Source of the DNA: Schaalia meyeri
Lineage (GTDB): Bacteria; Actinomycetota; Actinomycetes; Actinomycetales; Actinomycetaceae
NCBI RefSeq assembly: GCF_900105015.1
Contig: NZ_FNLK01000012.1
Coordinates: 1 to 32,000, forward strand
Direction: 5' to 3'
DNA length: 32,000 bases
A program made the position numbers and the translations under genes. Shown piece after piece: positions 1 to 17,288 of this stretch. The stretch's first letter is position 1. Each line of letters opens with the position of its first letter. Under the pieces are notes generated by a model. It had not been told where the DNA came from. It saw nothing but the letters and a program-made list of their open reading frames with translations, and did not search any database.

Positions 1-382
1 CAGGCATGACGGTCACCCCCACCTCCTCGCACTGTTCGAGAAGCCAGGCGTCGAGTTTGGCGCGCAGGACGGTCACGGCGTTCGCGGGTTCGCTCAGGCG
101 CTGGTCCCAGTAGTCGATGTTGACGAAGGAACCGGCGTTGATGAGGCTCACGCAATTCCGGGTGATCCTGCGCTCCACGGGCGCGACATCAACGAAGTTC
201 GGAAAGACCTTTTCCATGACGCGGCAGTAGAACACCCCGCCAGACAGGTTCTTCGATCCCGGCTCCGCGCCGCGCTCGACGAGCAAAACCTCCCGTCCTT
301 GTTCAGCGAGGGTGTAGGCGCACACGGCGCCCGCCACGCCTCCGCCGATGACGATGACGTCGAAGTCAACTTCCTCGGACAT
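1..382 (-). CDS. fixC: FAD-dependent ETF:quinone oxidoreductase (FixC-like), N-terminal 127 codons; gene runs off the left edge
   Basis: Absent from the ORF track because there is no stop inside the window. Manual reverse-strand translation from ATG 382-380 is open down to position 2: MSEEVDFDVIVIGGGVAGAVCAYTLAEQGREVLLVERGAEPGSKNLSGGVFY... This shows a GxGxxG FAD fold and an N-terminus resembling E. coli FixC as I recall it. It starts 15 nt after the etfA stop, giving fixA-fixB-fixC order. Confidence 0.8.
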   Translation of the reverse strand, partial: MSEEVDFDVIVIGGGVAGAVCAYTLAEQGREVLLVERGAEPGSKNLSGGVFYCRVMEKVFPNFVDVAPVERRITRNCVSLINAGSFVNIDYWDQRLSEPANAVTVLRAKLDAWLLEQCEEVGVTVMP

Positions 383-397
383 GATCTTCTTCTCGTT

Positions 398-1270
398 TCA
401 GGACAGCGCCGCTGTGAGTGCGGGCACGACGTCGTAGATGTCGCCCACGATGCCGTAGTCCGAGATCTGGAAGATCGGGGCATTAGCGTCGTTATTGATG
501 GCGACGACGACCTTGGAGTCCGCCATGCCGGAGGTGTGCTGCACCTGGCCGGAGATGCCGAGGGCGACGTAGACATCCGGTGAGACGTGCATGCCGGAGA
601 CCCCGACGTAGCGGTCCTTGCTCATCCAGGCGGTGCCTTCGGCCAGCGGGCGCGAGCAGGCGATCTCCGCGCCGAGGGCATCGGCCAGGGCCTGGGCGAG
701 GGCGAGGTCCTCCTCGGCCTTGAATCCGCGCCCGCAGGAGACGATGCGGCGCGCCGCTGCGAGGTTCGCGGGGCCGGAGCCCGAAGGCTGGACATCGACG
801 ACCTCGGCACCCATGGGGGTTCCCTCGTGGGCCTGGGCTGCGGGGCCATCGGCCTCCACTGCGGCGCCCCCTTCGAGGACGAGGACGGCACCCTTGAAGG
901 CGACGGTCTCGTTGGTGAGGCCTCCGTAGCGGGCCACCTCGGCGCCTTCGGCGCTGACGCTTGTCGCGCCGACGACGACGGGGAGTGCGAGAGCAGCCGC
1001 AGCGGCTCCCGCAAAGGAGCGCTCGGCGGGCCGGTTCGCCGCCAGGATCACGTCGCCCTTCGCATCGGTGAGCAGTCCCGCGACCACGCCCGCGTAGGCC
1101 TCGGCGGGCACGTTCTCGGCGGTGGGCACGTGGATGACGCTATCGACGCCGCCGACGGCGGGGGCCGAGGGAGCGACGGCGATGACGGTGATGGTCCCGC
1201 CGATCGCAGCGGCAGTCTCAACGAGGTTGGCGATGCGCTCGTCGGTGGTGAGGATCCAGGTGTTCGTCAT
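398..1270 (-). CDS. etfA: Electron transfer flavoprotein alpha subunit (FixB/EtfA)
   Basis: 290-aa ORF. The C-terminus VYVALGISGQVQHTSGMADSKVVVAINNDANAPIF matches the ETF-alpha signature. GAAAGGA RBS lies upstream of ATG 1270. Tightly follows etfB. Confidence 0.9.
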   Translation of the reverse strand: MTNTWILTTDERIANLVETAAAIGGTITVIAVAPSAPAVGGVDSVIHVPTAENVPAEAYAGVVAGLLTDAKGDVILAANRPAERSFAGAAAAALALPVVVGATSVSAEGAEVARYGGLTNETVAFKGAVLVLEGGAAVEADGPAAQAHEGTPMGAEVVDVQPSGSGPANLAAARRIVSCGRGFKAEEDLALAQALADALGAEIACSRPLAEGTAWMSKDRYVGVSGMHVSPDVYVALGISGQVQHTSGMADSKVVVAINNDANAPIFQISDYGIVGDIYDVVPALTAALS

Positions 1271-1287
1271 TGTTCTGCTGTCCTTTC

Positions 1288-2052
1288 TCAGAGTGCGCCG
1301 GCGTTGCGCAGGGCGGCGACGAGCTGGGCTGCGGCGTCGTCTCCGGTGAACGTCTCGTTGCGGCGGGCCTTGGCGACCGGCTTGGAGCGGCCGGTGACCT
1401 CCAGCGCCGCGTCAACGGTGGGCAGATCGGCGACGGCAACCTTCTCGAGGGGCTTCTTCCCGGCGGCGAGGATGTCCTTCATGCCGGGGACCTTCACGGG
1501 GGCGGCATCGGTGGCGACGGCGGCGACGACGGGGCCGTCAACGCTGATGGTGCGGGTACCGCCCGCGGTGCTCTGGGTCAACTTCCAGCCATCGCCCGCG
1601 GCCTCGACCGCGACGACTTCCTGGAAGCACGGCCAGCCGAGGAAGCCGGCGATGAGGGTGGAGACGATCTTCGCGGATTCGTCGATGGAGGAGTCGCCCG
1701 TCAGGACGAGGCTCGCCCCCTCGACCTTGCCGACGAGCCCCGCCAGGGCGCTCGCGACGGTCGTGGCGTTCCAGGTCGAGGTCTCGTCATCGGCGACGAC
1801 CAGGGCGCGGTCCAAACCCCTGGAGAGGGCGCCCTTCTTTGCCATTGACGAGGAGACGGCCGACGTGCCGACGGAAATACCGACGACATCGGTGCCGAGG
1901 GAATCGGCGAGGGTGCGCCCCACCTGCACGGCGACGGGGTCGTATTCGGAGATCGCGGCCTTGGCGCGCGACCAGTCGATGGCGCCGGAGGCGTCGACGG
2001 TGGTGTCTTGCGGGTTTGCTGCGTACTTGTACGCGACGATGATGCTCATCAT
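1288..2052 (-). CDS. etfB: Electron transfer flavoprotein beta subunit (FixA/EtfB)
   Basis: ORF 1288..2097. The family-typical N-terminus MSIIVAYKYAANPQD begins at the internal ATG-ATG (2052/2049), preceded by AAAGGG. Collinear with FixA as recalled (KILAAGKKP-type motif DILAAGKKP). Confidence 0.87.
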   Translation of the reverse strand: MMSIIVAYKYAANPQDTTVDASGAIDWSRAKAAISEYDPVAVQVGRTLADSLGTDVVGISVGTSAVSSSMAKKGALSRGLDRALVVADDETSTWNATTVASALAGLVGKVEGASLVLTGDSSIDESAKIVSTLIAGFLGWPCFQEVVAVEAAGDGWKLTQSTAGGTRTISVDGPVVAAVATDAAPVKVPGMKDILAAGKKPLEKVAVADLPTVDAALEVTGRSKPVAKARRNETFTGDDAAAQLVAALRNAGAL

Positions 2053-2172
2053 CTGCCCTTTCTGCACGAGAGTGCTGTTGGTGGTCTGCGGGGGCATCCA
2101 ACCCCTGCGGGATGCGAAGAGGGTCGCTTAGAATTACTGCATGTGACCCCCCTCGCGGAAGGAGTGCGCGCG

Positions 2173-2805
2173 GTGACGCGTTTTGCGATTCTCAGTCCCG
2201 CCAAAGCGGGCCGGCCTCGTGATCCTCAATTGGAGGAACGCGTCTTTCGCACTGCCCTCGACCTGTACGGGGAGGCGGGCTGGGCGGGGTTCAACCTGAC
2301 GAAGATCGCCGCCGAGGCCGGGGTCGGAAAGTCCAGCCTGTACTCGCGATGGAGCGACCGCGACGATCTGCTCCACTGTGCCTTCACCGCCCTGGTCATC
2401 TGCCCGGGCCCCCGCGGGGACTCCCCCAGGGAGGTTCTCGTCAACGAAGCGGACTTCCGGCTCCGCGAGTACCTGGGTCCGAACCGTTCGGCCGTGCGCC
2501 GACTGTTCGTTGAAGCGGGGAACGCCGAGGACCCGGTGATCTACCAGATCTACGAGGACCTGTTCGTCACCCCCCTCTCGGCCATCCACGAGCGCCTGTG
2601 GGATTTCAAGCGCGACGGCTGCCTGCCCCGCAACACGTCGGTGGTGCGCCTCCTCGACGCCATCGAAGGCAGCGTGCTGATGCGTACCTTCTGCCTGCCC
2701 GACGATTTCATCGGCTGTTTCTTGGAGAAGGTGCCGGACTACGTGGCCGACCTGGTTGACGATCAACTTCACCATCACGAGCCCTCACGCCAGTTAGACG
2801 AATAA
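2173..2805 (+). CDS. TetR/AcrR-family transcriptional regulator
   Basis: Part of ORF 2008..2805. HTH NLTKIAAEAGVGKSSLYSRWSDRDDLL. Start chosen at GTG 2173, 8 nt after GGAAGGAG (2157-2164); GTG 2143 is an alternative. Divergent from etfB, and its 3' end overlaps the convergent MBL gene by 31 nt. Confidence 0.8.
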   Translation: MTRFAILSPAKAGRPRDPQLEERVFRTALDLYGEAGWAGFNLTKIAAEAGVGKSSLYSRWSDRDDLLHCAFTALVICPGPRGDSPREVLVNEADFRLREYLGPNRSAVRRLFVEAGNAEDPVIYQIYEDLFVTPLSAIHERLWDFKRDGCLPRNTSVVRLLDAIEGSVLMRTFCLPDDFIGCFLEKVPDYVADLVDDQLHHHEPSRQLDE

Positions 2806-3446
2806 TCTCCGCCGCGCAATGCGCTCAGGGCGATGGAGGCCAGCATCGGCCGTTCGGCCCCCAGGATCGTCGCCGGACCGTGCCCCGGGTAGACGCACAG
2901 ATCGGCGTCCAACTGGGCGAGGCGCGCGCACGAGCGCGCCATGTCCGCGTAGTTGCCCAGGACGAAAGCCGTCGAGCCGATCGCCCCCGCGAAGAGCACG
3001 TCCCCGCTGAACAAAACCCGCTGGGCCTCGCCCAACAGACATATGCTGCCGGGCGTATGCCCCGGAGTGTGAAGAACCCGCAGGACGTCGTCGCCCCAGG
3101 TAATCGTGTCCCCCTCACGCAGGGGTCGGTCAACGTGGTCGACGGTGTAGTCGATCCCCTCCTCGTCGAAGCCGGAACGATGGACGTCGCCCACCCCGTC
3201 CACGTCGTCGGCCCCGCAGGCCACCGGGCAGCCATACGCCTCAACGAGCTCATTGACCGCCCCGATGTGGTCGCTGTGGCAGTGGGTGAGGACGATGCCG
3301 ATGACCGTCTTACCCGAAAGCCAGCGCATGAGGGTCGCTGGCTCCGCGCCCGGATCCACGACGATGGTGCCCTCCTCGTTGGTGAGGGCGTAGCAGACGG
3401 CCTGCCAGGAGCCGACGGTGAGTTGCTCGATCGTGAACACTGTCAA
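2775..3446 (-). CDS. MBL-fold metallo-hydrolase (glyoxalase-II-like; possible thioesterase)
   Basis: C-terminal about 222 aa of ORF 2775..3860. Motifs THCHSDH (HxHxDH) and HTPGHTPGS. Start TTG 3446 (or GTG 3440) overlaps the stop of the upstream MFS gene as TTGA. The N-terminal 139 aa of the tracked ORF overlap the MFS gene in another frame and are rejected. Confidence 0.8.
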   Translation of the reverse strand: MTVFTIEQLTVGSWQAVCYALTNEEGTIVVDPGAEPATLMRWLSGKTVIGIVLTHCHSDHIGAVNELVEAYGCPVACGADDVDGVGDVHRSGFDEEGIDYTVDHVDRPLREGDTITWGDDVLRVLHTPGHTPGSICLLGEAQRVLFSGDVLFAGAIGSTAFVLGNYADMARSCARLAQLDADLCVYPGHGPATILGAERPMLASIALSALRGGDYSSNWREGS

Positions 3447-4777
3447 CGCCCCCTGAAGTCCACTGATCCGGTTTCGGCCAGCGTGTAACCGCGCGTCTCG
3501 GGAGCCCAGAGGATCGACACGACCGCGCCCAGGGCGGAGATCACCGCACCGGCCAGCATGGTCTTGGCTATGCCGTAATCGGCGATGAATGCGGGCAGGA
3601 CGTAGATCGACACGACGGTTCCGACGCGGCTGAGCGCCATGGCAAATCCCATGGCGGTCGCACGGATCTCCGTGGGAAAGAGTTCGTTGGGATAGAGCCA
3701 TTCGAGGTTGCCGGGACCGCCCGACAAGAGCGCGTAGGCGATGAAGCAACCCATGACCAGGCCGATGCCCGCACCCGGAAAGAAAGCGATGATGGCCAGG
3801 GCCACGGTCATCCCAGAGAAACAGGCGATGATGAGGGGGCGTCGGCCGATCCTTTCGCACAGGTACATGGCGGGGAGGGTACCGATCATGAAGAAGGTGC
3901 CGATCAGGAGCTCACCAAGCAAAACGTTGCGGCCTTCGCCCAGGCCGACGGCGCTGATGATCTGCGGGCCGTAGGTGTACAGGGCGAACATGGGGATCGC
4001 CTGGCAGAGCCAGATGGTGCCGACGAAGATGATGCGCCGCAGATAGACGCCCCGCAGGACCTTCATGACCGATGTTTTCGCTGCCTCCTCAGCCTCGGGC
4101 AGGCGGACATTGGCCCCCAGGGTCTCATGAACGATGCGCTGGGCTTCTTCGACCCGGCCTTTCGAGACGAGCCAGCGCGGGGATTCCGGGATGTTCCATC
4201 GGCCCAGCAGAATGAGAATGCAGGGAACGGCAGAGGAAGCCAGCATGTAGCGCCAGCCGTGATCGGTGTTGACGAGGGCGAAGCCCACGAGGGCGGCGAC
4301 GTTGGCCCCCAGGTACCAGGCGGCGGCGATGATGCCCATCGCCGCGGCACGGTACTTGCGCGGCGAGAACTCGGCAATCATCGAGGTTGCGATTGGGTAG
4401 TCGGCGCCCACCGCCACGCCGACAAAGAAACGCAGAATTACTAGTGTCACAGGGGTGTGGACCAGGGCGCACAGGATCGACAAGATGGCGATCACCACCA
4501 AATCGATGACGAACATCTTGCGCCTGCCGATCAGATCCGTGAGCCACCCGCCGACGGAGGCGCCGAGGAAGAGCCCGACGAGGGCTGACACGCCGAGCAG
4601 GCCATTCCAGTGCGCGTCGAGGACCAGGTCGGAACCCATCGCCCCCAACGCCACTCCGATGATGGACAGGACGTAGCCCTCCAGGAAGGGGCCTCCCGAG
4701 GAAAAGACGATGACGCGCTTGAGCAGCGGGGTCATCTCGAGGTCCTCAAGGTCGATGACGGGTTCGTTGTCGCTCAC
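3443..4777 (-). CDS. MFS transporter, sugar-porter (Sugar_tr) type
   Basis: ORF 3443..4891. About 12 predicted TM segments with motifs GRRKMF, PESPRWL and PETRGYTL. Start set at GTG 4777, 6 nt after GGAGGGAG. Confidence 0.85.
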   Translation of the reverse strand: MSDNEPVIDLEDLEMTPLLKRVIVFSSGGPFLEGYVLSIIGVALGAMGSDLVLDAHWNGLLGVSALVGLFLGASVGGWLTDLIGRRKMFVIDLVVIAILSILCALVHTPVTLVILRFFVGVAVGADYPIATSMIAEFSPRKYRAAAMGIIAAAWYLGANVAALVGFALVNTDHGWRYMLASSAVPCILILLGRWNIPESPRWLVSKGRVEEAQRIVHETLGANVRLPEAEEAAKTSVMKVLRGVYLRRIIFVGTIWLCQAIPMFALYTYGPQIISAVGLGEGRNVLLGELLIGTFFMIGTLPAMYLCERIGRRPLIIACFSGMTVALAIIAFFPGAGIGLVMGCFIAYALLSGGPGNLEWLYPNELFPTEIRATAMGFAMALSRVGTVVSIYVLPAFIADYGIAKTMLAGAVISALGAVVSILWAPETRGYTLAETGSVDFRGR

Positions 4778-4828
4778 GGTGTTCTCCCTCCAAGCTCGGT
4801 ACGGGACGTGTGGTGTCTTCAGGGGGCG

Positions 4829-4863
4829 GCGCGGGAGAGGATGCTGCAGCGTCTCTCCCGCGC
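4829..4863 (-). terminator. Perfect 11-bp stem / 13-nt loop hairpin between the MaoC gene and the sugar-porter gene (terminator or attenuator)
   Basis: GCGCGGGAGAG (4829-4839) pairs with CTCTCCCGCGC (4853-4863). Lies in the 122-nt gap after the MaoC stop. No T-tract, as is common in high-GC actinobacteria. Confidence 0.4.
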
Positions 4864-4899
4864 CTCGGGGAATCGCGGCCTGGCCCCGCACGGGCGCGA

Positions 4900-5775
4900 T
4901 CAGCGGTATTCGATGATCCCCCAGTTCAGGTGCGGCTTCGCGCCGGTCTCATCGACATCCGCATCGACCAGTGCGAAACGCAGCTCGCCTTCCTTGACCT
5001 TCCACAACCGGGTCTTCAGCGTCGACCCCGGGTGGACCGGCGAGGTGATGCGGGTCTTGAAGCGGGTGATGCGCTCGGGCTCGCCGGGAACGAAAGCGTT
5101 GATCGCGTGACGCATGACGACGCCCGCGTAGGAAATCGCGTGCAGGATCGGACGCGGTTCGCCGTTCTCGGCGGCGTAGTCCCAGTCGATGTGCTGGGGA
5201 TGGTAGTCGCCCGAGAGCCGGTAGATGAGCGCCTGGTTCTCCGGGATCGTCTCTTCGATCTCCACGTCCGCGGGGCGGTCGGGCATCTCGACAATGTCCT
5301 TGGGGGGCTTGGGACCGCCCCAGCCGCCGTCATAGATCAGGCAATCCCAGGACTCGTTGGTGAAGAGCAGGTTCCCGTCCGAGTCGTAGGTGTCGCCGAT
5401 GTGTTGGGCGAGCAGGCCTCGACCCTCGCCGCGGTCGTAGAGGCCCTCGAGGCGCACCTTGGTCTCCAGGTGGTCGTTCATCTTCGTGATGGGGCGGTGG
5501 AAGGTGATGTCGAAGCCCCAGTGCAGCGAGCCGGCGTAGTTGTAGCCGTAGTCGATGGTGCGGGTGACCTCGGAGTCCACGATCAGCATGGCGCCGAACA
5601 TGGGGAGCACCTTGAGCTGGGGGTCCCGCTCATCGTGCTCGTTGAGGTATTCGAGGCCGTCCTTGCCGTCGATGCCCGCGCCGCACCCCAGTGCGAAGAG
5701 TTCCAGGTCGCGGAAGGTGTAGTCGCGTACGAAGGGTCCGAAGGTCTGGCCGACCATATCGGTGTTGATTGCCAT
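4900..5775 (-). CDS. MaoC-like double hot-dog (R)-specific enoyl-CoA hydratase/dehydratase
   Basis: 291 aa. C-terminal half carries a hydratase-2 motif variant YRLSGDYHPQHIDWDYA (canonical form is SGDxNPxH). GAAAGGA RBS before ATG 5775. Confidence 0.85.
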   Translation of the reverse strand: MAINTDMVGQTFGPFVRDYTFRDLELFALGCGAGIDGKDGLEYLNEHDERDPQLKVLPMFGAMLIVDSEVTRTIDYGYNYAGSLHWGFDITFHRPITKMNDHLETKVRLEGLYDRGEGRGLLAQHIGDTYDSDGNLLFTNESWDCLIYDGGWGGPKPPKDIVEMPDRPADVEIEETIPENQALIYRLSGDYHPQHIDWDYAAENGEPRPILHAISYAGVVMRHAINAFVPGEPERITRFKTRITSPVHPGSTLKTRLWKVKEGELRFALVDADVDETGAKPHLNWGIIEYR

Positions 5776-5802
5776 TGTTCATTGTCCTTTCATGGATCGG
5801 AT

Positions 5803-7374
5803 TCACGAGTGTGCGAGGATGTGTTTCTTTACTTTTCCGTAGCTGCCCCGCGGGAGCTCCTCGACGAACTCCACGAAGCTGGGCACCTTGAAGCCGGCGA
5901 GCCGACCCGCGCAGTGGTCGATGACAGCCTCGGCATCGAGCCCGGCTTCCGGCTCGGCCACGACGAAGGCTTTGACCGCTTGGCCTCGCACGCCATCGGG
6001 AACGCCGATCACCGCGACCTCTCGCACCCCGGGAAGGCCGTCGATGATGCACTCGACCTCAGCCGATGACACCGATTCCCCGGAGCGCTTAATGAGGTCG
6101 ACCCGTCGGTCCATGAAATACACCCACCCGTTCTCGATGTAGGCGTAGTCATGCGTGTGAAACCAGCCGTCCTCGTCGAGCACCTCCGCCGTTGCCTCGG
6201 GATCATTCCAATAACCCGCCATGAGGCTCACTCCGGGGACGCCGCGCAGGACGATCTCCCCCACCTCGCCCTCGGGCAGCTCGTCACCCTGACAGTCCAC
6301 GATGCGAACCTCGTAGCCGGGACCCACCCTGCCGATGGACGGCCAGCGGCGCTCCCCGTGGGGATAATCGGTGATCGCTCCGATCAGGCACTCGGTGGAC
6401 CCGTAGTTGTTGAGCAAGGGCACGCCGAAGCGCTCTTCGAAAGCCGCCTTATCCCCCTTGTTGAGGGGTAGGAAGTAGTGCATCTCGCGCACCTGGTGGT
6501 CGCGCTCACCCGGGTCGACGCTCTGGCGCAGCATGGTCACCACGATCATCGCCATCCCCTGGACCAGGGTCGCTCGATGATCGCGTGCCTGCCGCCAAAA
6601 GCACGTCGCCCGGTAGCGGGAGAGCATGATGAGCGTCGCGCCCATCGTCAGCACCGGGGCCAAGGCCGAGAGCTGGAGATTCACCCGGGCCGCCACCATG
6701 GAGGTCATGTAGCGATCCTCGGGGTTCATATCCAGTTCCCAGTTGACGAAGTTGCCCGAAAAGACGAAGTTCGCGTGTGTGATCATCACGCCCTTGGGTG
6801 CCGAGGTCGTGCCCGAGGTGAAGAGGATCTCGCACAGGTCCTTGGGGCGCACACGAGGGTTCGACGTGAAGGTGTCGGCTTCGCGCGACGTGAGCTCCCC
6901 CAGGCGGGGAAGGTCAGGGCCGTCGCCGTCCGCGGCGCCCACCTGGCCCACCACGATGACGTCCCTGACGGTGTCCGGCAGGCAAAAGAGCACGTCACCG
7001 ACCCTGCATGCGCGGGTGATCAGCGTGTCAGCCTGGCACAGACCGAGGATGCGACCCAGCTCGAAGGGTGCCGAAGTGGCGTCAACGGGCACCGATACAG
7101 CGCCCATTTTCGCCAGGGCCAGGGTGCACTCTATGAACTCGACGCAGTTGTCGAGGTAGAGCACCACCCGGCTCCCCTCGCCGATGCCCCTGGCAACGAG
7201 GGCGTTGGCGCACTTGTTCACGGCCGCGTCGAATTCGCGGTAGGTGAAGCGACAGACGTCGTGGGAACGAGCGTCCTCGAAAACGAGGAACTCGTGTGCT
7301 CCCCGGTCCTTCACCTGCCGCTCCCACAGTTGGGGCACCGTGGTGCTCTCCGGCGCGAACGTCGAGCTGGTCAC
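5803..7374 (-). CDS. caiC: AMP-dependent acyl-CoA ligase, CaiC-like (crotonobetaine/carnitine-CoA ligase family)
   Basis: 523 aa, GTG start. AMP-binding motif ILFTSGTTSAPKGVMITH. ERRWPSIGRVGPGYE and FKVPSFVEFVEELPR resemble E. coli CaiC (KRRWPSIGRVG) as recalled. Symbol is tentative. Confidence 0.82.
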   Translation of the reverse strand: MTSSTFAPESTTVPQLWERQVKDRGAHEFLVFEDARSHDVCRFTYREFDAAVNKCANALVARGIGEGSRVVLYLDNCVEFIECTLALAKMGAVSVPVDATSAPFELGRILGLCQADTLITRACRVGDVLFCLPDTVRDVIVVGQVGAADGDGPDLPRLGELTSREADTFTSNPRVRPKDLCEILFTSGTTSAPKGVMITHANFVFSGNFVNWELDMNPEDRYMTSMVAARVNLQLSALAPVLTMGATLIMLSRYRATCFWRQARDHRATLVQGMAMIVVTMLRQSVDPGERDHQVREMHYFLPLNKGDKAAFEERFGVPLLNNYGSTECLIGAITDYPHGERRWPSIGRVGPGYEVRIVDCQGDELPEGEVGEIVLRGVPGVSLMAGYWNDPEATAEVLDEDGWFHTHDYAYIENGWVYFMDRRVDLIKRSGESVSSAEVECIIDGLPGVREVAVIGVPDGVRGQAVKAFVVAEPEAGLDAEAVIDHCAGRLAGFKVPSFVEFVEELPRGSYGKVKKHILAHS

Positions 7375-7380
7375 GGCCGA

Positions 7381-8601
7381 TCAGTCCCCGTCACTGGCTT
7401 TGACGGTGCCGGACTCGATCAGGGCGTCGATGGCCTCGTCCGAGTATCCGGCGCGCCTCAGGACGTCGCGAGTGTCCTCACCCAGAGCGGGCATCGGCCG
7501 CCAGAAGGCACCGGGGTTGCGGGCGAACTTCGGGAAGGTATTCAGCCCCTTGACGGGGGTGCCGTCCGCCTTCTCCCACTCGATGAAGCACTCGCGCGCC
7601 TGGACGTGCTCGGCCTCCAGGATGTCGGGGAACTCGTTGACGACCTGGGCGGCGATACGGTGATCCACGAAGTCGCGCTGCACGTCGTACTTGGACTGAG
7701 TCTTGAGGTACTCCTCCAGTGTCTCCTGGATGAGGTCGGCCTTGGGGCTGCTCAGCCACAGCGCCGACGTGCCCTCGGGGTATTCCTCCGTGCCCCACAG
7801 GTGACCCAGGCCGATGGTCTCGAGCAGGTACTTGTTCTGCGACACCCCGTACAGGCACAGTCCGATGTAGCCGTCCTTGCACTCGTAGATGCCAATACCG
7901 CACAGGTTCTGGTGGCGAGCTCCCGGACGCGGGTAGGTAATGCCCGCGTTCATGTAGTCCATCATGTAGTAGGTGCCCACCCTCAGCAGGGTCTCGTACA
8001 TCGCCATGTCGATGCTCTCGCCCTCGCCGGTGACTCCCACGCGGTGCAGGGCAGCCAGGGCCGAGGAGATGATCATCAGGGAGTTGATGTAATCGCCCAG
8101 GTACGGGGAGATGTTCATCGGCTGATCAGCGCTGCCGTTCTGGGCGATGATCCCCGCGTACGCGGCGACGGTGAGGTCGTAGGCCGCGGAGTTGACCTGC
8201 GCGTCATCGCCCCATTGCCCGAAGCCGGACACGTGGACGATGACGAGCTTGGGGTTAACTTCCCAGAGGAATTCGTCGGTGATGCCCTTGCGGGCGTACA
8301 TGGGGCCCTTGCCCGCCTCGATGAAGATGTCGGCGTCCTTGACGATGGCCCGCAGGGCCTCCTTGCCCTCTTCGGTGAACGGGTTCATGGAGATCGAGCG
8401 CATGTTGCGACGCTCCATCTCCTTCACCCAGGCGGTGTCGCGCATAGAGTCGCCGGTCCACACGTTTTCGATCCAGGTGACGTCGGCTCCCCATTCGGCC
8501 ATGATGGCAGCGGCCGTGGGGGCCGCGATCTCAACTGCGGAATAGACGACTTTGACGCCATCGAGGACGCCGAATGATGGCTTTTCCGTGGGCAGTGCCA
8601 T
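7381..8601 (-). CDS. caiB: Family III CoA-transferase, CaiB-like
   Basis: 406 aa. DIFIEAGKGPMYARKGITDEFLWEVNPKLVIVHVSGFGQ, GESIDMAMYE and FPKFARNPGAFWRPMP are collinear with E. coli CaiB as recalled. GAAAGGA RBS. The stop lies 6 nt before the caiC-like GTG. Confidence 0.87.
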   Translation of the reverse strand: MALPTEKPSFGVLDGVKVVYSAVEIAAPTAAAIMAEWGADVTWIENVWTGDSMRDTAWVKEMERRNMRSISMNPFTEEGKEALRAIVKDADIFIEAGKGPMYARKGITDEFLWEVNPKLVIVHVSGFGQWGDDAQVNSAAYDLTVAAYAGIIAQNGSADQPMNISPYLGDYINSLMIISSALAALHRVGVTGEGESIDMAMYETLLRVGTYYMMDYMNAGITYPRPGARHQNLCGIGIYECKDGYIGLCLYGVSQNKYLLETIGLGHLWGTEEYPEGTSALWLSSPKADLIQETLEEYLKTQSKYDVQRDFVDHRIAAQVVNEFPDILEAEHVQARECFIEWEKADGTPVKGLNTFPKFARNPGAFWRPMPALGEDTRDVLRRAGYSDEAIDALIESGTVKASDGD

Positions 8602-8629
8602 GGTGTAGGTCCTTTCTATTCAGATGGTG

Positions 8630-9763
8630 TCAGCGGTAGGGGTACAGGGCGGAGCGGCCAGCGGTGAGGATCATCATCTCGTCGGTGCCGCCAGAGATGC
8701 GGTCCACGCGCAGGTCGCGGTAGAAGCGCTGGACGCGGTGGTCGCCGGTGATACCCACGCCGGCCAGGACCTGGAGCGCACGGTCGACGACCTCGAAGGA
8801 GGCCTGGGAACAGTAGTACTTGGCCATCGAACAGTCGCCGCGGGACAGCAGACCGTTGTCGTGCTTCCACGCGATCTCGTAGAGCATGTTGCGCATGTTC
8901 GTCAGGCGGATCTTCATCTCGGCGAACTTGAGCTGGATGAGCTGATGGCGGGCGATGGCCGCTCCGCCCTGAACGCGCTGGTTGGCGTACTTCGCGGCAT
9001 CCTCGAAGGCGCAGTAGGCGGTGCCGTAGTTGGTCAGCGCAACGAGGAAGCGTTCGAGGTCGAAGTCGACCACGCCGCGGCGGAAGCCGTTGCCCTCGGT
9101 ACCAAAGAGGTCCTTCTCCTCCAGTTCGACATTGTCGAAGTAGATGTCGCAGCACGAGTCCATGCGCAGACCGAGCTTGCCCAGGGGTTCCTTCGTGATG
9201 CCCGGCAGGCTCATGTCGACGAACCACTCGGTGTAGGTGTCCATGTTTTCCGAGTCCCGGGCCATGACCACCAAGTAGGGCACGTAGAGGGAGGAGGTGA
9301 TGAAGGTCTTGTGGCCGTTGAGGTAGACCTTGCCGTCCTTGCGGGTGTAGGTGGTGCGCATGTCGTCCCACGAGGACCCAGCGGAGGGCTCGGTCATCGC
9401 GTAGTTGAGCATCTGCTTGCCGGTACCGACAAAGGAGAGGATCTTCTCCTTTTGTTCCTCGGTGCCCTCACGCAAAACGGTGTCCCAACACGGCAGCTGA
9501 TACAGGACGTAGGTGGGGCCACCTTCACGCCCGAGGGCCTCGTAGGCGGCGGTTAGGGTCACCCAGTCGGCGCCCAGCCCGTCGTTCTCCTCGGGGAGGA
9601 GGATGCGGTCGAAGCCGAGCTCACAAATGGCCTCGGTCCATTCGATGGGGTACTCGTGCTTCTCATCGCACTCGTGGAAGTAGGTGTCCCAGTTCCGCGA
9701 GCGCATGAGTTCGGTGAAGGCGTCTACCATGAGCTGCTGGTCTTCGTTGAGCGAGAATTCCAT
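8630..9763 (-). CDS. caiA: Acyl-CoA dehydrogenase, CaiA-like (crotonobetainyl-CoA reductase family)
   Basis: 377 aa. [56 protein letters not shown] and [17 protein letters not shown] match strings I recall from E. coli CaiA along the whole length. Confidence 0.87.
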
Positions 9764-9795
9764 GTCGAGTCACTTTCTGTGTGTGAGCGTGTTGC

Positions 9796-10764
9796 TCAGC
9801 GGTGGATCGGGTGTTCGGTGAAAAAGCGCGCGGCCTCGTTGAGGACTTCCATGGTCTGATCGAGCATCTTGGAGTGGTGCAGGAAGCCATGGATGACGCC
9901 CTCGACTTCGTTGTAGAGGTGGGGCACGCGGCACAGATCGAGGATTTCGACCAGGGTGCGCGAATCGTCGCGCAGGGGGTCGAGGCCGGCAGCGACGATG
10001 TAGCAGGGCGGGATGCCCGCGCTCAAGTCGGCGCCAAGGATGTTGAAGTAGGGGTCGTCGGCGTTCGCTGGATCGGCGAAGTACTGGCCCAGATAGTACG
10101 CGTAGTCCTCTTCGGTCAGCCCGTCCCACGTGCCTCCCAGCAGGCGCATGGACATGGAATCCTTCAGCCCGTAGGCGCCGTAGAAGAGGAGCATCGTGCG
10201 CACGGTGGACAGGGATTCCTCGTCGCGCATCATGAGCATCGTCGCTGCCGCCATGTTGGCCCCGGCGGAGTCTCCGGCAAAGGAGATGTCATCGGGGTCG
10301 ACGCCCCATTCCTCGGCGCGGTCACGAATGTGGGCGACGACGTCGCGGCACTCGTGGATCTGCTGGGGGAAGCGCGCATCGGGCGCCAGAGTGTAGTCGA
10401 TGCTGACGACCGCGGCTTCCGTGAGGTGGCACAGGGTGCGTGTGATGCGGTCGTGGGTGTCCACATCGCCGACGACCCATCCGCCTCCGTGCATGAACAC
10501 GATGAGCGGCAACGACCCCTGATCGCTCGGGCGGTAGTGGCGCACCCGCACCTCGCCGTAGCGGGTTGGGACCCGACGGTCGGCGCACATGGCCACTGAG
10601 GGGCCGCCCTCGTTCCAGAAGGCGCGTTCGGCCCGATAGGCCTGGCGCATTTCTTCGAGGCTCTGACCGGTGACGTAGGCGCCGGCGGCGAGTTCGTTCT
10701 GTTTGGCGACGACCTCGCCCATCTGCGTGCTCCACAGGCGAGGCACGGCGTATTTGTGACCCAC
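9796..10764 (-). CDS. Alpha/beta-hydrolase, family IV (HSL-type) carboxylesterase
   Basis: ORF 9796..10860. Oxyanion motif HGGGW, nucleophile elbow GDSAGA, and later DPLRDD and HGF for the Asp/His of the triad. Start placed at GTG 10764, 7 nt after GAAGGAG; ATG 10722 is an alternative. Confidence 0.85.
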   Translation of the reverse strand: MGHKYAVPRLWSTQMGEVVAKQNELAAGAYVTGQSLEEMRQAYRAERAFWNEGGPSVAMCADRRVPTRYGEVRVRHYRPSDQGSLPLIVFMHGGGWVVGDVDTHDRITRTLCHLTEAAVVSIDYTLAPDARFPQQIHECRDVVAHIRDRAEEWGVDPDDISFAGDSAGANMAAATMLMMRDEESLSTVRTMLLFYGAYGLKDSMSMRLLGGTWDGLTEEDYAYYLGQYFADPANADDPYFNILGADLSAGIPPCYIVAAGLDPLRDDSRTLVEILDLCRVPHLYNEVEGVIHGFLHHSKMLDQTMEVLNEAARFFTEHPIHR

Positions 10765-10793
10765 CGTATTTCTCCTTCGCTTGACTGGGATTG

Positions 10794-12116
10794 TCAGTTC
10801 TCGTCGTCCGCCTGCTTCTTCGAGCGAGCACGAACGAGCAGGACCAGAGCGATCGCGCACAGCGCCGCCAGGAGTGCGGAACCAGCCAGGATCAGGAAGA
10901 TCTGATGGAACGCGGTTTCCTTCGCGTCACCTGCGGCATCGCGGATGGAGCCGAACCAGGTGTAGGAGAAGGTGTCGGGAAGGAAGCCGATCACCGACAG
11001 GAGGCCGGAGGCCGTGCCGAAGACCACGGGGGGAATCTTTCCTTCGGTGAGCTGCGAGGACACGATGCCGAAGACACCGTTGGCGAGGAAGGCAAGAACG
11101 ATGACCAGGCTGGCCGCGAGCACGGCATTCGCGCTTGAGGGCAGGACCGCGAAGCAGACAAACACGCAGGACGCCGCGATCGAACCACCCGCGATAACGC
11201 GCGAGGGGGAACCAACCATCTGTGCCACTCCGCCGAAGAACGGGGCGGAGAGCAGCGAGACGCCGTAGGTACGGATGCTTGCAACCATGGTGACGACGAC
11301 GATTGGGAGGACCATGACCTCCTTCATGTAGCCTGTCGTCTGGTTGACGCCGGTGTAGAAGAAATAGACGAAGAAGAGCGTTGCCGCGGCCAGCCAGACG
11401 ACGGGGTTCGACAGGACGGTCCCGAGCTGCTTGATGCTGAAACCGCCCTCGCTGGACTCAAACTCACCCTCGAACTTCGGGATAAAGAAGAAGGAGAGGA
11501 CGGCGAGAAGCATGATGATGCAGCCGAGGATGATCAGCAGGACGCGCATGGGAATGAGGTCACCCTGGGACGCGAGGCGACCAAGCAGCCAGGAGTTGAA
11601 GAAGCCCAGAAGAACGCCGGCGAGGCCGTAGAATGCGTAGGAGATGCCGATGTTTCGCGAGTACGCGCTCTCCTCGGAGATGAGGCGGACCAGCTTGTAG
11701 CGGATTCCCCACCAGATCAGGATCGTGCTGACGCCCATCGCCACGAAAAGGAAACGGATCGTGAGCAGCGAGGGGAACATCGCGTACCAGAAGGTGAGCA
11801 GGGCGGTCAGACCGAAGCCCACCCAGGAGAGGGTGTGAACACGAACCACGTCGGCGACGATGCCCGAGGGCAGGTAGCAGATGAGGGCCGTGGTCGCGTA
11901 CGCGCTCAGGAGGGTTCCGAGTGTCGTCGTGACGTTGTCAGGGGTCGCCCCGCCCGAGGCGATGAGCGCCTTTCCCAGCGCGTCTTCGAAGACGTACTGC
12001 AAGAACGCGGGCATGTAGATGATGGAACTGCCGATGGAGACCAGGATGAGCAGGAAGACGCGATGACCAGTCGTCAAGTCTTGCGCGCGGCGCTCCTGGG
12101 TGAGCATACTCAGCAC
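10794..12116 (-). CDS. Polytopic membrane transporter, MFS-like, first gene of the minus-strand cluster
   Basis: 440 aa, about 12 hydrophobic segments, MFS motif-A-like LPSGIVADVVRVHTL. GTG 12116 lies 8 nt after GAAAGG; ATG 12107 is an alternative. Confidence 0.7.
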   Translation of the reverse strand: MLSMLTQERRAQDLTTGHRVFLLILVSIGSSIIYMPAFLQYVFEDALGKALIASGGATPDNVTTTLGTLLSAYATTALICYLPSGIVADVVRVHTLSWVGFGLTALLTFWYAMFPSLLTIRFLFVAMGVSTILIWWGIRYKLVRLISEESAYSRNIGISYAFYGLAGVLLGFFNSWLLGRLASQGDLIPMRVLLIILGCIIMLLAVLSFFFIPKFEGEFESSEGGFSIKQLGTVLSNPVVWLAAATLFFVYFFYTGVNQTTGYMKEVMVLPIVVVTMVASIRTYGVSLLSAPFFGGVAQMVGSPSRVIAGGSIAASCVFVCFAVLPSSANAVLAASLVIVLAFLANGVFGIVSSQLTEGKIPPVVFGTASGLLSVIGFLPDTFSYTWFGSIRDAAGDAKETAFHQIFLILAGSALLAALCAIALVLLVRARSKKQADDEN

Positions 12117-12686
12117 TGCGGCTGCCTTTCATATGTCGAGGGTCAGGGGAATTGACTTGTTTCAAGTGCCCCGCGACCATCTCGCTCATTCCCATGAAAA
12201 TTCCGAGAAATTCCATGTTCCTGACGATTCTGACCCACCATTGCGGTCAACGTTAACCACGAAACCAGGGCCATCGGAAGCGCGCGGGGCGTTGCAATAT
12301 CAATGCTATCGGGTAGCCCCTATGTTTGTCCTGACCTTGGTCCCACGACTTTCGCCAACCATTTTGGACCCCGCGCGTCCAAAAATCACTTCTACCTGCA
12401 ACGGTGCCAATCGCACCCTAACCATGTTTATTCTGGACGATTTGAGTCCATTTGTCCCCTACGTTTACGACACGCACAAACTATCGAATCGCGCGCTCCA
12501 AACGAGCATAATTATCCGACAAATAAAATGAGGGAACAGGAGCTCCGTTCACGAGGCACCCCCAAGGAAACGAGCCCGGATCGCACGGGAATCATCCCAC
12601 GCGCCGACGCTGCCACCGCTCAGGAATCGCCCTCACAACTGTCGAAACAAGGGACGGGAGGGATGCGAGCATGAAATATTTATGCT
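12117..12686. promoter_or_regulatory. AT-rich 570-bp intergenic region between the divergent cai-like operon and the CPBP gene; presumed promoters/operators
   Basis: Visibly lower G+C than the flanks. Contains a near-palindrome GTCAACGTTAAC (12246-12257), GAAAATTCC/GAAATTCC direct repeats (12196-12214), and the palindrome AGCATgAAATATTTATGCT (12668-12686) abutting ATG 12687. The tracked ORFs here lack RBS and coding bias. Confidence 0.45.
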
Positions 12687-14700: not shown

Positions 14701-15607
14701 TCTCATCGAGGCCGAGGGCCTCATCAAGAGTTTTGGGAAGGTCAAGGCCCTGGACGGCCTCGACCTTGGGGTCGTCAAGGGCCAGATCCACGGCTTCCTG
14801 GGCCCCAACGGCGCGGGGAAGTCCACGACGATCCGCGTGCTGCTGGGCATGTACCGCACCGACGGTGGCCGCGCCCACGTCCTGGGAATGGACCCCGCCC
14901 GCAGTGCCTCGGACATCAACCGCCGCCTCGCCTACGTGCCCGGCTCGGTGAGTCTGTGGCCCAGCCTCACGGGCGGGCAGGTACTCGACACCCTGGCGGG
15001 CCTGCGCGGCTCGCGCGACCGCGCCCGCGAGGAGGAGCTCACCGAGCGCTTCGACCTGGACCCCACCAAGAAAGTGCGCGCCTACTCCAAGGGCAACGCG
15101 CAGAAGGTGGCGCTCGTGGCGGCCCTATCGGCCCCCGTCGATCTCCTTATCCTTGACGAGCCGACCTCGGGCCTGGACCCCCTCATGGAACGCGTCTTCA
15201 CCGACGCCATCCGGGAGGCCGCTGACGCAGGGACGACCGTCCTGCTGTCCAGCCACATCCTGGTGGAGGTCCAGGACCTGTGCTCGCACGTGACGATCAT
15301 CAAGGACGGGCGCACCGTGGAGAGCGGCGACTTGTCGCACCTGCGCTCCCTGGCAAAGACCGCCATCCGCATCGGCGTCGGCGAGGGGGACGCGCGGCGC
15401 CCCCGCCTCATCGAGGCCCTGGCCGGGCTCGGCGCCCCCATCCGCCCCACCGGGACCCGCGTGGAAACCCGCGTCCCCTCCTCCCTGGTTCCTGCGGTCC
15501 TGGGCGTGGTCGCGGATCTGGGCGCAGACGACGTCCAGGTGGAGCCCGCCAGCCTAGAGGACTTGTTCATGAGCCACTACTCGGGGGACCAGGGGGCGCG
15601 CTCATGA
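14693..15607 (+). CDS. ABC transporter ATP-binding protein (DrrA/ABC-2 type)
   Basis: 304 aa, TTG start after GAAAGGA. Walker A GPNGAGKST, degenerate signature YSKGNAQK, Walker B LLILDEPTSGLD, H-loop LLSSH. Confidence 0.9.
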   Translation: MSDLIEAEGLIKSFGKVKALDGLDLGVVKGQIHGFLGPNGAGKSTTIRVLLGMYRTDGGRAHVLGMDPARSASDINRRLAYVPGSVSLWPSLTGGQVLDTLAGLRGSRDRAREEELTERFDLDPTKKVRAYSKGNAQKVALVAALSAPVDLLILDEPTSGLDPLMERVFTDAIREAADAGTTVLLSSHILVEVQDLCSHVTIIKDGRTVESGDLSHLRSLAKTAIRIGVGEGDARRPRLIEALAGLGAPIRPTGTRVETRVPSSLVPAVLGVVADLGADDVQVEPASLEDLFMSHYSGDQGARS

Positions 15608-17205: not shown

Positions 17206-17258
17206 GCTGCTCGGGGTCCCCCGGCAACCGCCCCGCCCCCACCGGTCCCGCACCAGCC

Positions 17259-17288
17259 TTGCATTTTCGCCGCCAATGGTTTTAGTAT
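17259..17288 (+). promoter_or_regulatory. Candidate promoter of the EEP gene: TTGCAT, 18 nt, TAGTAT
   Basis: TTGCAT at 17259-17264 and TAGTAT at 17283-17288, about 38 nt upstream of ATG 17326. AAGGAA RBS at 17314-17319. Confidence 0.35.

Follow-up and report, generated by a model that had tools for sequence, protein, structure and literature searches.

A cai/fix locus with altered accessory genes in Schaalia meyeri, predicted to reduce carnitine to gamma-butyrobetaine

The first 12,116 nucleotides (nt) of contig NZ_FNLK01000012.1 of Schaalia meyeri (RefSeq assembly GCF_900105015.1) carry a gene cluster that, judged from its sequence, is a true cai/fix locus and not a look-alike. We predict that it probably supports the anaerobic reduction of carnitine to gamma-butyrobetaine, with a front end that draws carnitine from acylcarnitines. 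The locus opens the 32,000-nt stretch that was analysed as a whole (hereafter the window) and comprises 12 genes, 11 of them on the minus strand and one, tetR, on the plus strand. Its core consists of CaiA, CaiB, a CaiC-like ligase and the electron transfer flavoprotein (ETF) genes fixA, fixB and fixC. Around this core are two transporters of the major facilitator superfamily (MFS), a family-IV esterase, a MaoC hydratase, a metallo-beta-lactamase-fold (MBL) hydrolase and a TetR regulator. The original prediction, made from the sequence alone, had listed exactly this accessory set, and each member was located and matched to its domain. It had also described the accessory parts as non-orthologous to those of E. 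coli and had found no CaiT, CaiD, CaiE or CaiF, and both statements stand. When the E. coli proteins were searched against the 32-kb window by tblastn, the best E values were 1.3 for CaiT, 1.8 for CaiD, 0.28 for CaiE and 0.49 for CaiF.

Core genes and their orthologs

Three consecutive minus-strand open reading frames (ORFs) lie between 9763 and 5803, exactly where cai genes had been proposed. CaiA, the crotonobetainyl-coenzyme A (CoA) reductase with an acyl-CoA dehydrogenase fold (8630-9763, 377 residues), scores 716 bits against the NCBIfam equivalog NF002885, which has a cut-off of 540; the next family reaches 423, and the acryloyl-CoA reductase model gives 181. CaiB, the gamma-butyrobetainyl-CoA:carnitine CoA-transferase of family III (7381-8601, 406 residues), scores 675.9 bits against NF002914 (cut-off 413), and the next CoA-transferase family reaches 145. 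The CaiC-like protein, an adenosine monophosphate (AMP)-forming betaine:CoA ligase (5803-7374, 523 residues), scores 537.6 bits against NF005947, which is under the cut-off of 651 but still 195 bits over the next family (342), and its position within the cluster is conserved among the loci that were fetched for comparison. All three are collinear with the E. coli K-12 proteins over their full length, as had been proposed, at 63% identity for CaiA (380 columns), 45% for CaiB (399 columns) and 38% for CaiC (514 columns). The five strings quoted as shared occupy equivalent positions in both protein sets: PTYVLYQLP at 83 in each, LGLRMDSCC at 197 in the window and 200 in E. coli, a 13-letter string at 237 and 240, GESID[MI]AMYE at 194 and 193, and RRWPSIGRVG at 342 and 337. 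The prediction would have failed had the proteins been placed with another characterised subfamily; instead, the next families lie far lower, at 423 and 145 bits for CaiA and CaiB.

Details of the proteins are in keeping with these scores. The top solved structure for the window CaiB is E. coli CaiB (1XA3, 383 bits; runner-up 113), whose catalytic Asp169 is aligned to D170. In the C-terminal 50 residues, the window CaiA and E. coli CaiA have in common the sequence SGG[TS]DEM, where ordinary acyl-CoA dehydrogenases carry the YEG motif with the catalytic glutamate. From this substitution we suspect that in the CaiA subfamily the catalytic base lies at a different position from that of YEG.

The fix genes follow in the order fixA-fixB-fixC from 2052 to 1, all on the minus strand, as had been read from the sequence. 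FixA (1288-2052, or to 2097 for the longest ORF; 254 residues) is an ETF beta-type subunit that matches Pfam ETF at 2.9e-27 and is 31% identical to E. coli FixA; its best NCBIfam matches are the YdiQ and FixA models, both under their cut-offs. FixB (398-1270, 290 residues) is an ETF alpha-type subunit that matches ETF_alpha at 1.7e-29, with 35% identity to E. coli FixB over 309 columns. FixC (1-382), of the ETF:quinone oxidoreductase type, is cut by the window edge after residue 127. It has the flavin adenine dinucleotide-binding motif GGGVAG and is 42.5% identical to residues 1-126 of E. coli FixC. The suggestion that fixX should be sought to the left of the window is borne out by orthologous loci, in which FixX comes after FixC, and we expect fixX just beyond the edge.

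The same gene content and order are found in Propionibacterium freudenreichii, except that the TetR gene between MBL and fixA is missing there. Its host family is Propionibacteriaceae, and that of the window Actinomycetaceae. The proteins of the two loci are 83% identical for CaiA, 85% for MaoC, 67% for CaiB, 62% for FixA, 60% for MFS1, 57% for MFS2, 55% for the esterase, 54% for FixB, 52% for MBL and 48% for CaiC. The cluster was described as a carnitine gene cluster with an MFS transporter, an alpha/beta hydrolase, caiABC, an enoyl-CoA hydratase, a further MFS transporter and fixABCX, without caiD or caiT (Roder et al. 2024, Genome Biology, PMC11007987). In a genome-wide association with yogurt metabolites, strains with the MFS and hydrolase pair had octanoyl- and decanoyl-carnitine depleted, and carnitine and putative gamma-butyrobetaine were higher (PMC11007987). 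Those authors suggested that the two genes lying between caiABC and fixABCX, the hydratase and the MFS, "might fill these gaps" of caiD and caiT (PMC11007987). In the window, likewise, the MFS and alpha/beta-hydrolase pair is immediately upstream of caiA, and MaoC and the second MFS lie between caiC and fixA, with caiD and caiT absent.

The original prediction left room for a related system acting on a different substrate. In such a case the enoyl-CoA reduced would come from a betaine other than carnitine, or from an enoate as in caffeate or acrylate reduction, and the likeness to Cai proteins would reflect family membership only. The lack of a betaine/choline/carnitine transporter (BCCT), CaiD, CaiE and CaiF in the window would fit this, as would the scores of CaiC, FixA and FixB under their cut-offs. 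We nevertheless regard it as unlikely, given that CaiA and CaiB score above their equivalog cut-offs and leave the alternatives far behind (181 against 716 bits for acryloyl-CoA reductase, 145 against 676 for the next CoA-transferase), and that carnitine compounds are linked by association to the orthologous cluster of P. freudenreichii (PMC11007987). In other phyla, moreover, the CaiA/CaiB/CaiC/MaoC core adjoins a BCCT transporter that is 41-79% identical to CaiT, and for this reason we consider the core tied to carnitine-type substrates.

Proposed pathway and its accessory genes

The eight genes from MFS2 to MBL are separated by gaps of only 2-32 nt and for this reason look like one operon. 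The fixABC(X) genes are a second transcription unit, divergent from tetR. We infer the following roles for MaoC, both MFS transporters, MBL and TetR, and likewise the direction of electron flow. MFS2 would import O-acylcarnitines and carnitine, and a cytoplasmic Aes-type esterase would strip the acyl group. CaiC would prime the cycle by making betainyl-CoA, after which CaiB would move CoA from gamma-butyrobetainyl-CoA to incoming carnitine. The MaoC-type hydratase may convert carnitinyl-CoA to crotonobetainyl-CoA, the step of CaiD in E. coli. CaiA would then reduce crotonobetainyl-CoA to gamma-butyrobetainyl-CoA with electrons delivered via FixAB (the ETF) and FixCX. Gamma-butyrobetaine would be exported, possibly through the YaaU-like MFS, and MBL may free CoA as a thioesterase. 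For E. coli, the biochemistry of the ligase, CoA-transfer, dehydration and reduction steps is established (review PMC2131755), and fixA and fixB are reported to be needed for carnitine reduction (Walt and Kahn 2002, as cited in PMC11007987; review PMC2131755).

The operon opens with MFS2 (10794-12107, minus strand, 437 residues), an MFS_1 transporter (Pfam, 2e-15) that matched no specific NCBIfam family; its start was set to agree with 437-residue gene calls on contigs 99% identical to the window. With the P. freudenreichii MFS tied to acylcarnitine depletion it shares 57% identity. Among the fetched loci MFS2 is present where CaiT is absent, the sole exception being a 26% MFS2-like match in locus L045, and it is usually accompanied by the esterase. 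We propose that MFS2 imports acylcarnitine and carnitine.

The esterase (9796-10764, minus strand, 322 residues) belongs to family IV (HSL/Aes type). It matches Pfam Abhydrolase_3 at 5.5e-54 and the NCBIfam Aes model NF007547 at 390.2 (cut-off 389), and E. coli Aes (4KRX, 1.8e-75) is the closest among solved structures. Its HGGG motif, at position 92, and its GDSAG motif, at position 164, are intact, and no obvious N-terminal signal sequence was seen in the translation, for which no predictor was run. Identity to the P. freudenreichii hydrolase P0044 is 55-56%. We propose that it acts as a cytoplasmic O-acylcarnitine hydrolase. The roles of MFS2 and the esterase are suggested by the P. freudenreichii association and by their recurrence beside cai genes, including an esterase that follows caiE in Shewanella and Ferrimonas.

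The second transporter, MFS1 (3443-4891 and 482 residues as the longest ORF, minus strand), is a member of the sugar-porter family (Pfam Sugar_tr, 6e-60). Across 440 columns, covering the full length of YaaU, it shares 50% identity with E. coli YaaU, which is encoded by the uncharacterised MFS gene directly after fixX (locus L066, 12808-14139); the similarity begins near 4765, inside the longest ORF. E. coli YaaU is in turn 59-61% identical to the MFS that closes Bacillota cai clusters, and transporters of the YaaU type go with cai/fix in Actinomycetota, Coriobacteriia, Bacillota and E. coli. YaaU is an ortholog of MFS1. We propose that MFS1 is a betaine transporter, and suggest a betaine-transport role for YaaU because its linkage to cai/fix spans phyla. 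A search of the available literature found no paper pairing yaaU with carnitine.

MBL (2775-3440, minus strand, 221 residues) closes the operon. It is a glyoxalase-II-like metallo-hydrolase of the YcbL/GloC type (Pfam Lactamase_B, 2.1e-34; best structure 2XF4, 4e-29), whose GTG start lies 2 nt past the stop of MFS1. A longer reading of 361 residues (2775-3860) was rejected, as it overlaps MFS1 and the domain begins only at residue 152; the GTG start gives 221 residues. The gene is kept in most actinobacterial loci (with 52% identity in P. freudenreichii) and is missing from the Cellulomonadaceae and Bacillota versions; an MBL and TetR pair also lies upstream of the Desulfobaculum cai cluster. 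The glyoxalase II fold makes MBL a possible, though weak, candidate for a betainyl-CoA thioesterase.

A thioesterase-like MBL is also what one would look for if the locus ran in the oxidative direction, from gamma-butyrobetaine by way of crotonobetainyl-CoA and carnitinyl-CoA to carnitine, as in the aerobic Agrobacterium/HK4-type pathway, with MBL as a carnitinyl-CoA hydrolase and with electrons passing through the ETF and FixCX to menaquinone. In its favour, the core enzymes are all reversible in principle, and a "carnitinyl-CoA hydrolase" step does exist in the aerobic pathway (PMC2131755). Against it, the hosts are fermentative facultative anaerobes, and the P. freudenreichii cluster goes with higher, not lower, putative gamma-butyrobetaine (PMC11007987). 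In addition, an esterase that frees carnitine from acylcarnitines feeds the reductive direction, and the MBL gene is not retained in Cellulomonadaceae or Bacillota. We consider the oxidative direction very improbable and keep to carnitine reduction.

The TetR regulator had been noted, and the gene is real; it lies on the plus strand (2173-2805, 210 residues; Pfam TetR_N, 2.7e-8). It is convergent with the MBL gene, the 3' ends overlapping by 31 nt, and sits at this place in upwards of 45 of the fetched loci, partial contigs included. A minus-strand ORF at 2134-2778 (214 residues) was rejected as the reverse frame of tetR, with no Pfam or NCBIfam match and an antisense-like composition. We propose that TetR is a local repressor, which would probably hold both transcription units off until a pathway metabolite is present.

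Upstream of MFS2 lies a non-coding intergenic region of 579 bp (12108-12686) with a lower G+C content, presumed to be the promoter and operator region; ORFs within it had no Pfam match. It contains a perfect 8+8 palindrome, TTTTGGAC-N7-GTCCAAAA, at 12362-12384, which might serve as an operator or form a bidirectional terminator-like hairpin. A TetR operator shared by the two units was considered and rejected, since the spacer between fixA and tetR and the region upstream of MFS2 share only a 9-mer and the palindrome is found upstream of MFS2 only. Scans for promoter and terminator consensus sequences gave counts no higher than in shuffled sequence, and no Rfam family was matched in the window.

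The MaoC-type hydratase

MaoC (4900-5775, minus strand, 291 residues) is a double hot-dog protein of hydratase-2 type and occupies the position after caiC. It matches Pfam MaoC_dehydratas and MFE-2_hydrat-2_N but no NCBIfam family, and its closest structures are 3KHP and human MFE-2 hydratase 2. The canonical hydratase-2 motif, [YF]-x(1,2)-[LVIG]-[STGC]-G-D-x-N-P-[LIV]-H, contains an Asp/His dyad and reads YRLSGDRNPLH in 3KHP, where the window protein has YRLSGDYHPQH. Of 50 cluster homologs, 49 show the form YRLSGD[YWF]HPQH, which retains the Asp and the last His but has His for Asn and Gln for [LIV]. These proteins are cai-linked in every context examined, that is, in about 51 genome loci, 6 protein-lookup contexts and 80 metagenome loci (the last judged wherever the contig extends). 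A CaiD-like gene is lacking within 7-10 kb in about 130 of the approximately 137 loci that bear MaoC. MaoC belongs to a cai-dedicated subfamily with the motif GD[YWF]HPQH, whose members occur in the cai clusters of four phyla, mostly with no CaiD but at times next to one.

MaoC and CaiD do not strictly exclude each other. Mutual exclusivity held in the first 65 loci and was then broken by Shewanella, Ferrimonas and one Eggerthellaceae locus. In Shewanella fidelis (L072, 8123-11697) and Ferrimonas kyonanensis (L077, 8106-11855), MaoC is inserted between caiD and caiE, whose products are 86-89% (CaiD) and 70-75% (CaiE) identical to those of E. coli, and a family-IV esterase gene follows caiE; in the Eggerthellaceae locus, MaoC lies near a crotonase. 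An Enterobacillus operon, by contrast, encodes CaiT and CaiA that are 79-85% identical to the E. coli proteins, and has MaoC in the place of caiD and caiE.

Stereochemistry complicates the assignment. Those MaoC/hydratase-2 enzymes that have been characterised act specifically on the D-(3R)-hydroxyacyl configuration. L-Carnitine owes its R label solely to the priority of CH2N+ over CH2COO-; spatially it is an alcohol of the L/(3S) type, as made by crotonases such as CaiD. A canonical hydratase 2 acting on trans-crotonobetainyl-CoA would by this reasoning yield D-carnitinyl-CoA.

MaoC may thus belong to the same pathway without being the L-carnitinyl-CoA dehydratase. It could act on D-carnitinyl-CoA, either for the use of D-carnitine or, together with a crotonase, as half of a two-hydratase racemase, or it could have some other role, with an unlinked crotonase performing the L step. 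Every relative characterised so far (3KHP, MFE-2 hydratase 2, PhaJ) is an (R)-specific hydratase, bona fide caiD and caiE flank MaoC in Shewanella fidelis and Ferrimonas, and the Eggerthellaceae gene is near a crotonase. E. coli and Pseudomonas are known to have carnitine racemase activity (PMC2131755). On the other side are the great majority of MaoC loci without a nearby CaiD-like gene, the Enterobacillus operon in which MaoC fills the caiD/caiE place next to E. coli-like CaiT and CaiA, and the Coriobacteriia, which have MFS2, esterase, CaiABC and YaaU and carry CaiD without MaoC. HPQH in place of NP[LIV]H is in addition an altered catalytic motif, compatible with a changed reaction. We suspect that a different role for MaoC is a real but rather doubtful alternative. 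By a modest preference over a D-carnitinyl-CoA hydratase working with an unlinked crotonase, we favour MaoC as a substitute for CaiD with unusual stereochemistry, in view of how often MaoC stands without CaiD and of the Coriobacteriia, whose accessory set is the same but which carry CaiD and lack MaoC.

Several points weigh against carnitine reduction as we have drawn it. Given the specificity of hydratase 2 and the geometry of L-carnitine, a canonical MaoC is not expected to dehydrate L-carnitinyl-CoA, and the coexistence of both enzymes in Shewanella, Ferrimonas and the Eggerthellaceae locus indicates that MaoC is not simply interchangeable with CaiD. The CaiC-like ligase is under its curated cut-off (537.6 against 651), and FixA and FixB are far under the E. 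coli-type equivalog cut-offs. The identification of gamma-butyrobetaine in the P. freudenreichii study is, moreover, only putative (PMC11007987).

A bolder combination of these ideas is that the HPQH MaoC is a hot-dog L-carnitinyl-CoA dehydratase, of opposite stereochemistry to all characterised members of the fold, which displaced CaiD in most cai clusters outside Enterobacteriaceae. We offer this tentatively, as somewhat short of an even chance. If it were true, the textbook caiTABCDE operon would be a minority version of the pathway, and gamma-butyrobetaine, a pro-atherogenic intermediate, would be made, from acylcarnitines among other sources, by oral and gut Actinomycetaceae, Coriobacteriia and Bacillota that have gone unrecognised as its producers.

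Distribution and known systems

A scan of one genome per species gave 65 loci with close CaiB relatives. The full order is MFS2, esterase, CaiA, CaiB, CaiC, MaoC, MFS1, MBL, TetR (reversed), FixA, FixB, FixC and FixX. It is complete in 27 of 70 genome loci, with more that are partial where contigs end, and every gene of it was detected in 15 of 80 metagenome loci, with further loci having one gene different or being cut by contig ends. Gene for gene, the layout is kept in upwards of 45 genome and metagenome loci fetched from Actinomycetaceae and their relatives. Hosts of the full order are Schaalia, Actinomyces, Arcanobacterium and Trueperella. Versions without TetR, or without both MBL and TetR, occur in Winkia, Bifidobacteriaceae metagenome-assembled genomes (MAGs), Brooklawnia, Cellulomonas, Oerskovia and Sanguibacter. 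Closest are the genomes of Schaalia georgiae, S. cardiffensis and Pauljensenia hongkongensis, whose CaiB is 93-94% identical and whose locus DNA is 85-88% identical (87-88% in S. georgiae and P. hongkongensis), and metagenome contigs are 99.3-99.5% identical to the locus.

More distant hosts have other arrangements. In Bacillota (Neobacillus, Bacillus, Peptococcaceae, Sporomusa) the order is CaiT, CaiA, CaiB, FixABCX, CaiC, MaoC and YaaU, without MFS2, esterase or CaiD. Coriobacteriia (Senegalimassilia, Ellagibacter, Eggerthellaceae) have a divergent FixXCBA followed by CaiD, MFS2, esterase, CaiA, CaiB, CaiC and YaaU, without MaoC. The order CaiT, CaiA, CaiB, CaiC, MaoC is found without CaiD or CaiE in Enterobacillus and, with fix genes following, in Desulfobaculum. 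Shewanella fidelis and Ferrimonas lack none of CaiT, CaiA, CaiB, CaiC, CaiD, MaoC, CaiE and the esterase, which lie in this order. CaiA from Bacillota, Desulfobaculum and Enterobacillus (loci L034, L038, L045, L049, L051, L065 and L073-L075) shares 76-85% identity with E. coli CaiA, as against 63% for the actinobacterial protein. This pattern indicates that the cai module has moved horizontally between phyla.

Two further arrangements were observed. Actinomyces marseillensis (L019, 4089-10000) has the esterase-CaiA pair in tandem duplicate (MFS2, esterase, CaiA, esterase, CaiA, then CaiB onward). An Eggerthellaceae MAG (L076) carries a second cai-like set in a different arrangement, consisting of an MFS, a dehydrogenase, a CoA-transferase, MaoC, a ligase and a reversed crotonase, which adjoins a ligase, a YaaU-like MFS and a LuxR/GerE regulator; the two sets may be paralogous betaine pathways in one genome.

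The remainder of the window holds housekeeping genes (pgi, pfk, pta, ackA, cobB and ABC transporters), and the locus is for this reason taken to be chromosomal and not obviously mobile. G+C content is 61-70% across positions 1-12116 and 0.58-0.74 across the whole 32 kb. The upper extreme is at 15280-17285 on the plus strand (G+C 0.74, AT skew -0.34), where an ORF of 553-641 residues immediately follows an ABC ATPase gene; it matches nothing in Pfam or NCBIfam and is probably an uncharacterised permease partner. At 29000-31000 (G+C 0.58-0.61) a DUF3800 protein (29598-30356) lies beside a CobB-type sirtuin (30706-31548). PADLOC detected no defence system in the lower-G+C patch at 28-31 kb, and one ORF there was rejected, as it is really ackA on the opposite strand.

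Gamma-butyrobetaine is an intermediate between dietary carnitine and trimethylamine or trimethylamine N-oxide (TMAO); formation of gamma-butyrobetaine is ascribed to the cai operon (PMC8364193, PMC12026204). In the TMAO papers examined this is the cai operon of facultative anaerobic Proteobacteria, or simply "caiTABCDE" (PMC8364193, PMC12026204). Host-associated Actinomycetaceae (Schaalia, Pauljensenia, Arcanobacterium, Trueperella, Winkia) commonly carry a complete and differently equipped cai/fix locus, which occurs also in Coriobacteriia and Bacillota. If our reading is correct, the known host range of gamma-butyrobetaine formation would widen to common oral and gut actinomycetes. Gene surveys requiring caiT or caiD would miss such organisms. 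The presence of the esterase with its MFS partner points to acylcarnitines as a substrate pool and would link these compounds, whose levels rise in inflamed guts (PMC10694575), to the pathway. The locus also suggests testable functions for three orphan families, namely the HPQH MaoC subfamily, E. coli YaaU and the Aes-type esterases.

With the caiTABCDE and fixABCX operons of E. coli and Proteus (and yaaU), the window shares orthologs of CaiA, CaiB, FixA, FixB, FixC and YaaU, a CaiC-like ligase, and CoA-dependent chemistry with the cycling of CoA by CaiB. E. coli has CaiT, CaiD, CaiE and CaiF, whereas the window has MFS2 with the esterase, MaoC, MBL and TetR; the E. coli genes form two divergent operons, whereas all genes but tetR are on one strand here. 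The clusters of Bacillota, Desulfobacterota and Enterobacillus share the MaoC subfamily (58-70% identity), CaiA, CaiB, CaiC, FixABCX and often YaaU. They differ in keeping the BCCT transporter CaiT and in lacking the pair of MFS2 and esterase, and in Bacillota fixABCX is placed between caiB and caiC.

The bbu/gbu cluster of Emergencia timonensis likewise combines an enzyme of the acyl-CoA dehydrogenase fold with family III CoA-transferases and acts on carnitine-derived betainyl-CoA (PMC8364193). It has two CoA-transferases, a ferredoxin, a BCCT transporter and a thioesterase, but no ETF or ligase, whereas the window has one CoA-transferase, a ligase, an ETF and a CaiA equivalog. Genomes that bear bbu are reported to hold no cai homologs (PMC8364193). 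HocS of Pseudomonas aeruginosa frees carnitine from O-acylcarnitine, as we propose for the window esterase, and the two are likened by reaction alone: HocS is a short-chain acylcarnitine hydrolase that feeds the aerobic carnitine dehydrogenase pathway, whereas the window protein is an Aes-type family IV esterase.

The closest system is that of P. freudenreichii. The original prediction had envisaged an undescribed actinobacterial route, but the architecture was already present in that species (PMC11007987), and we confirmed the locus there gene for gene. A full-text literature search for cai genes in Actinomyces, Schaalia or Coriobacteriia, or together with MaoC, gave nothing relevant beyond Roder et al. 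2024. The window locus therefore adds a new member to a variant noticed shortly before, and does not represent an undescribed pathway; new here are the dedicated MaoC subfamily, its stereochemical conflict with L-carnitine and the orthology of YaaU and MFS1.

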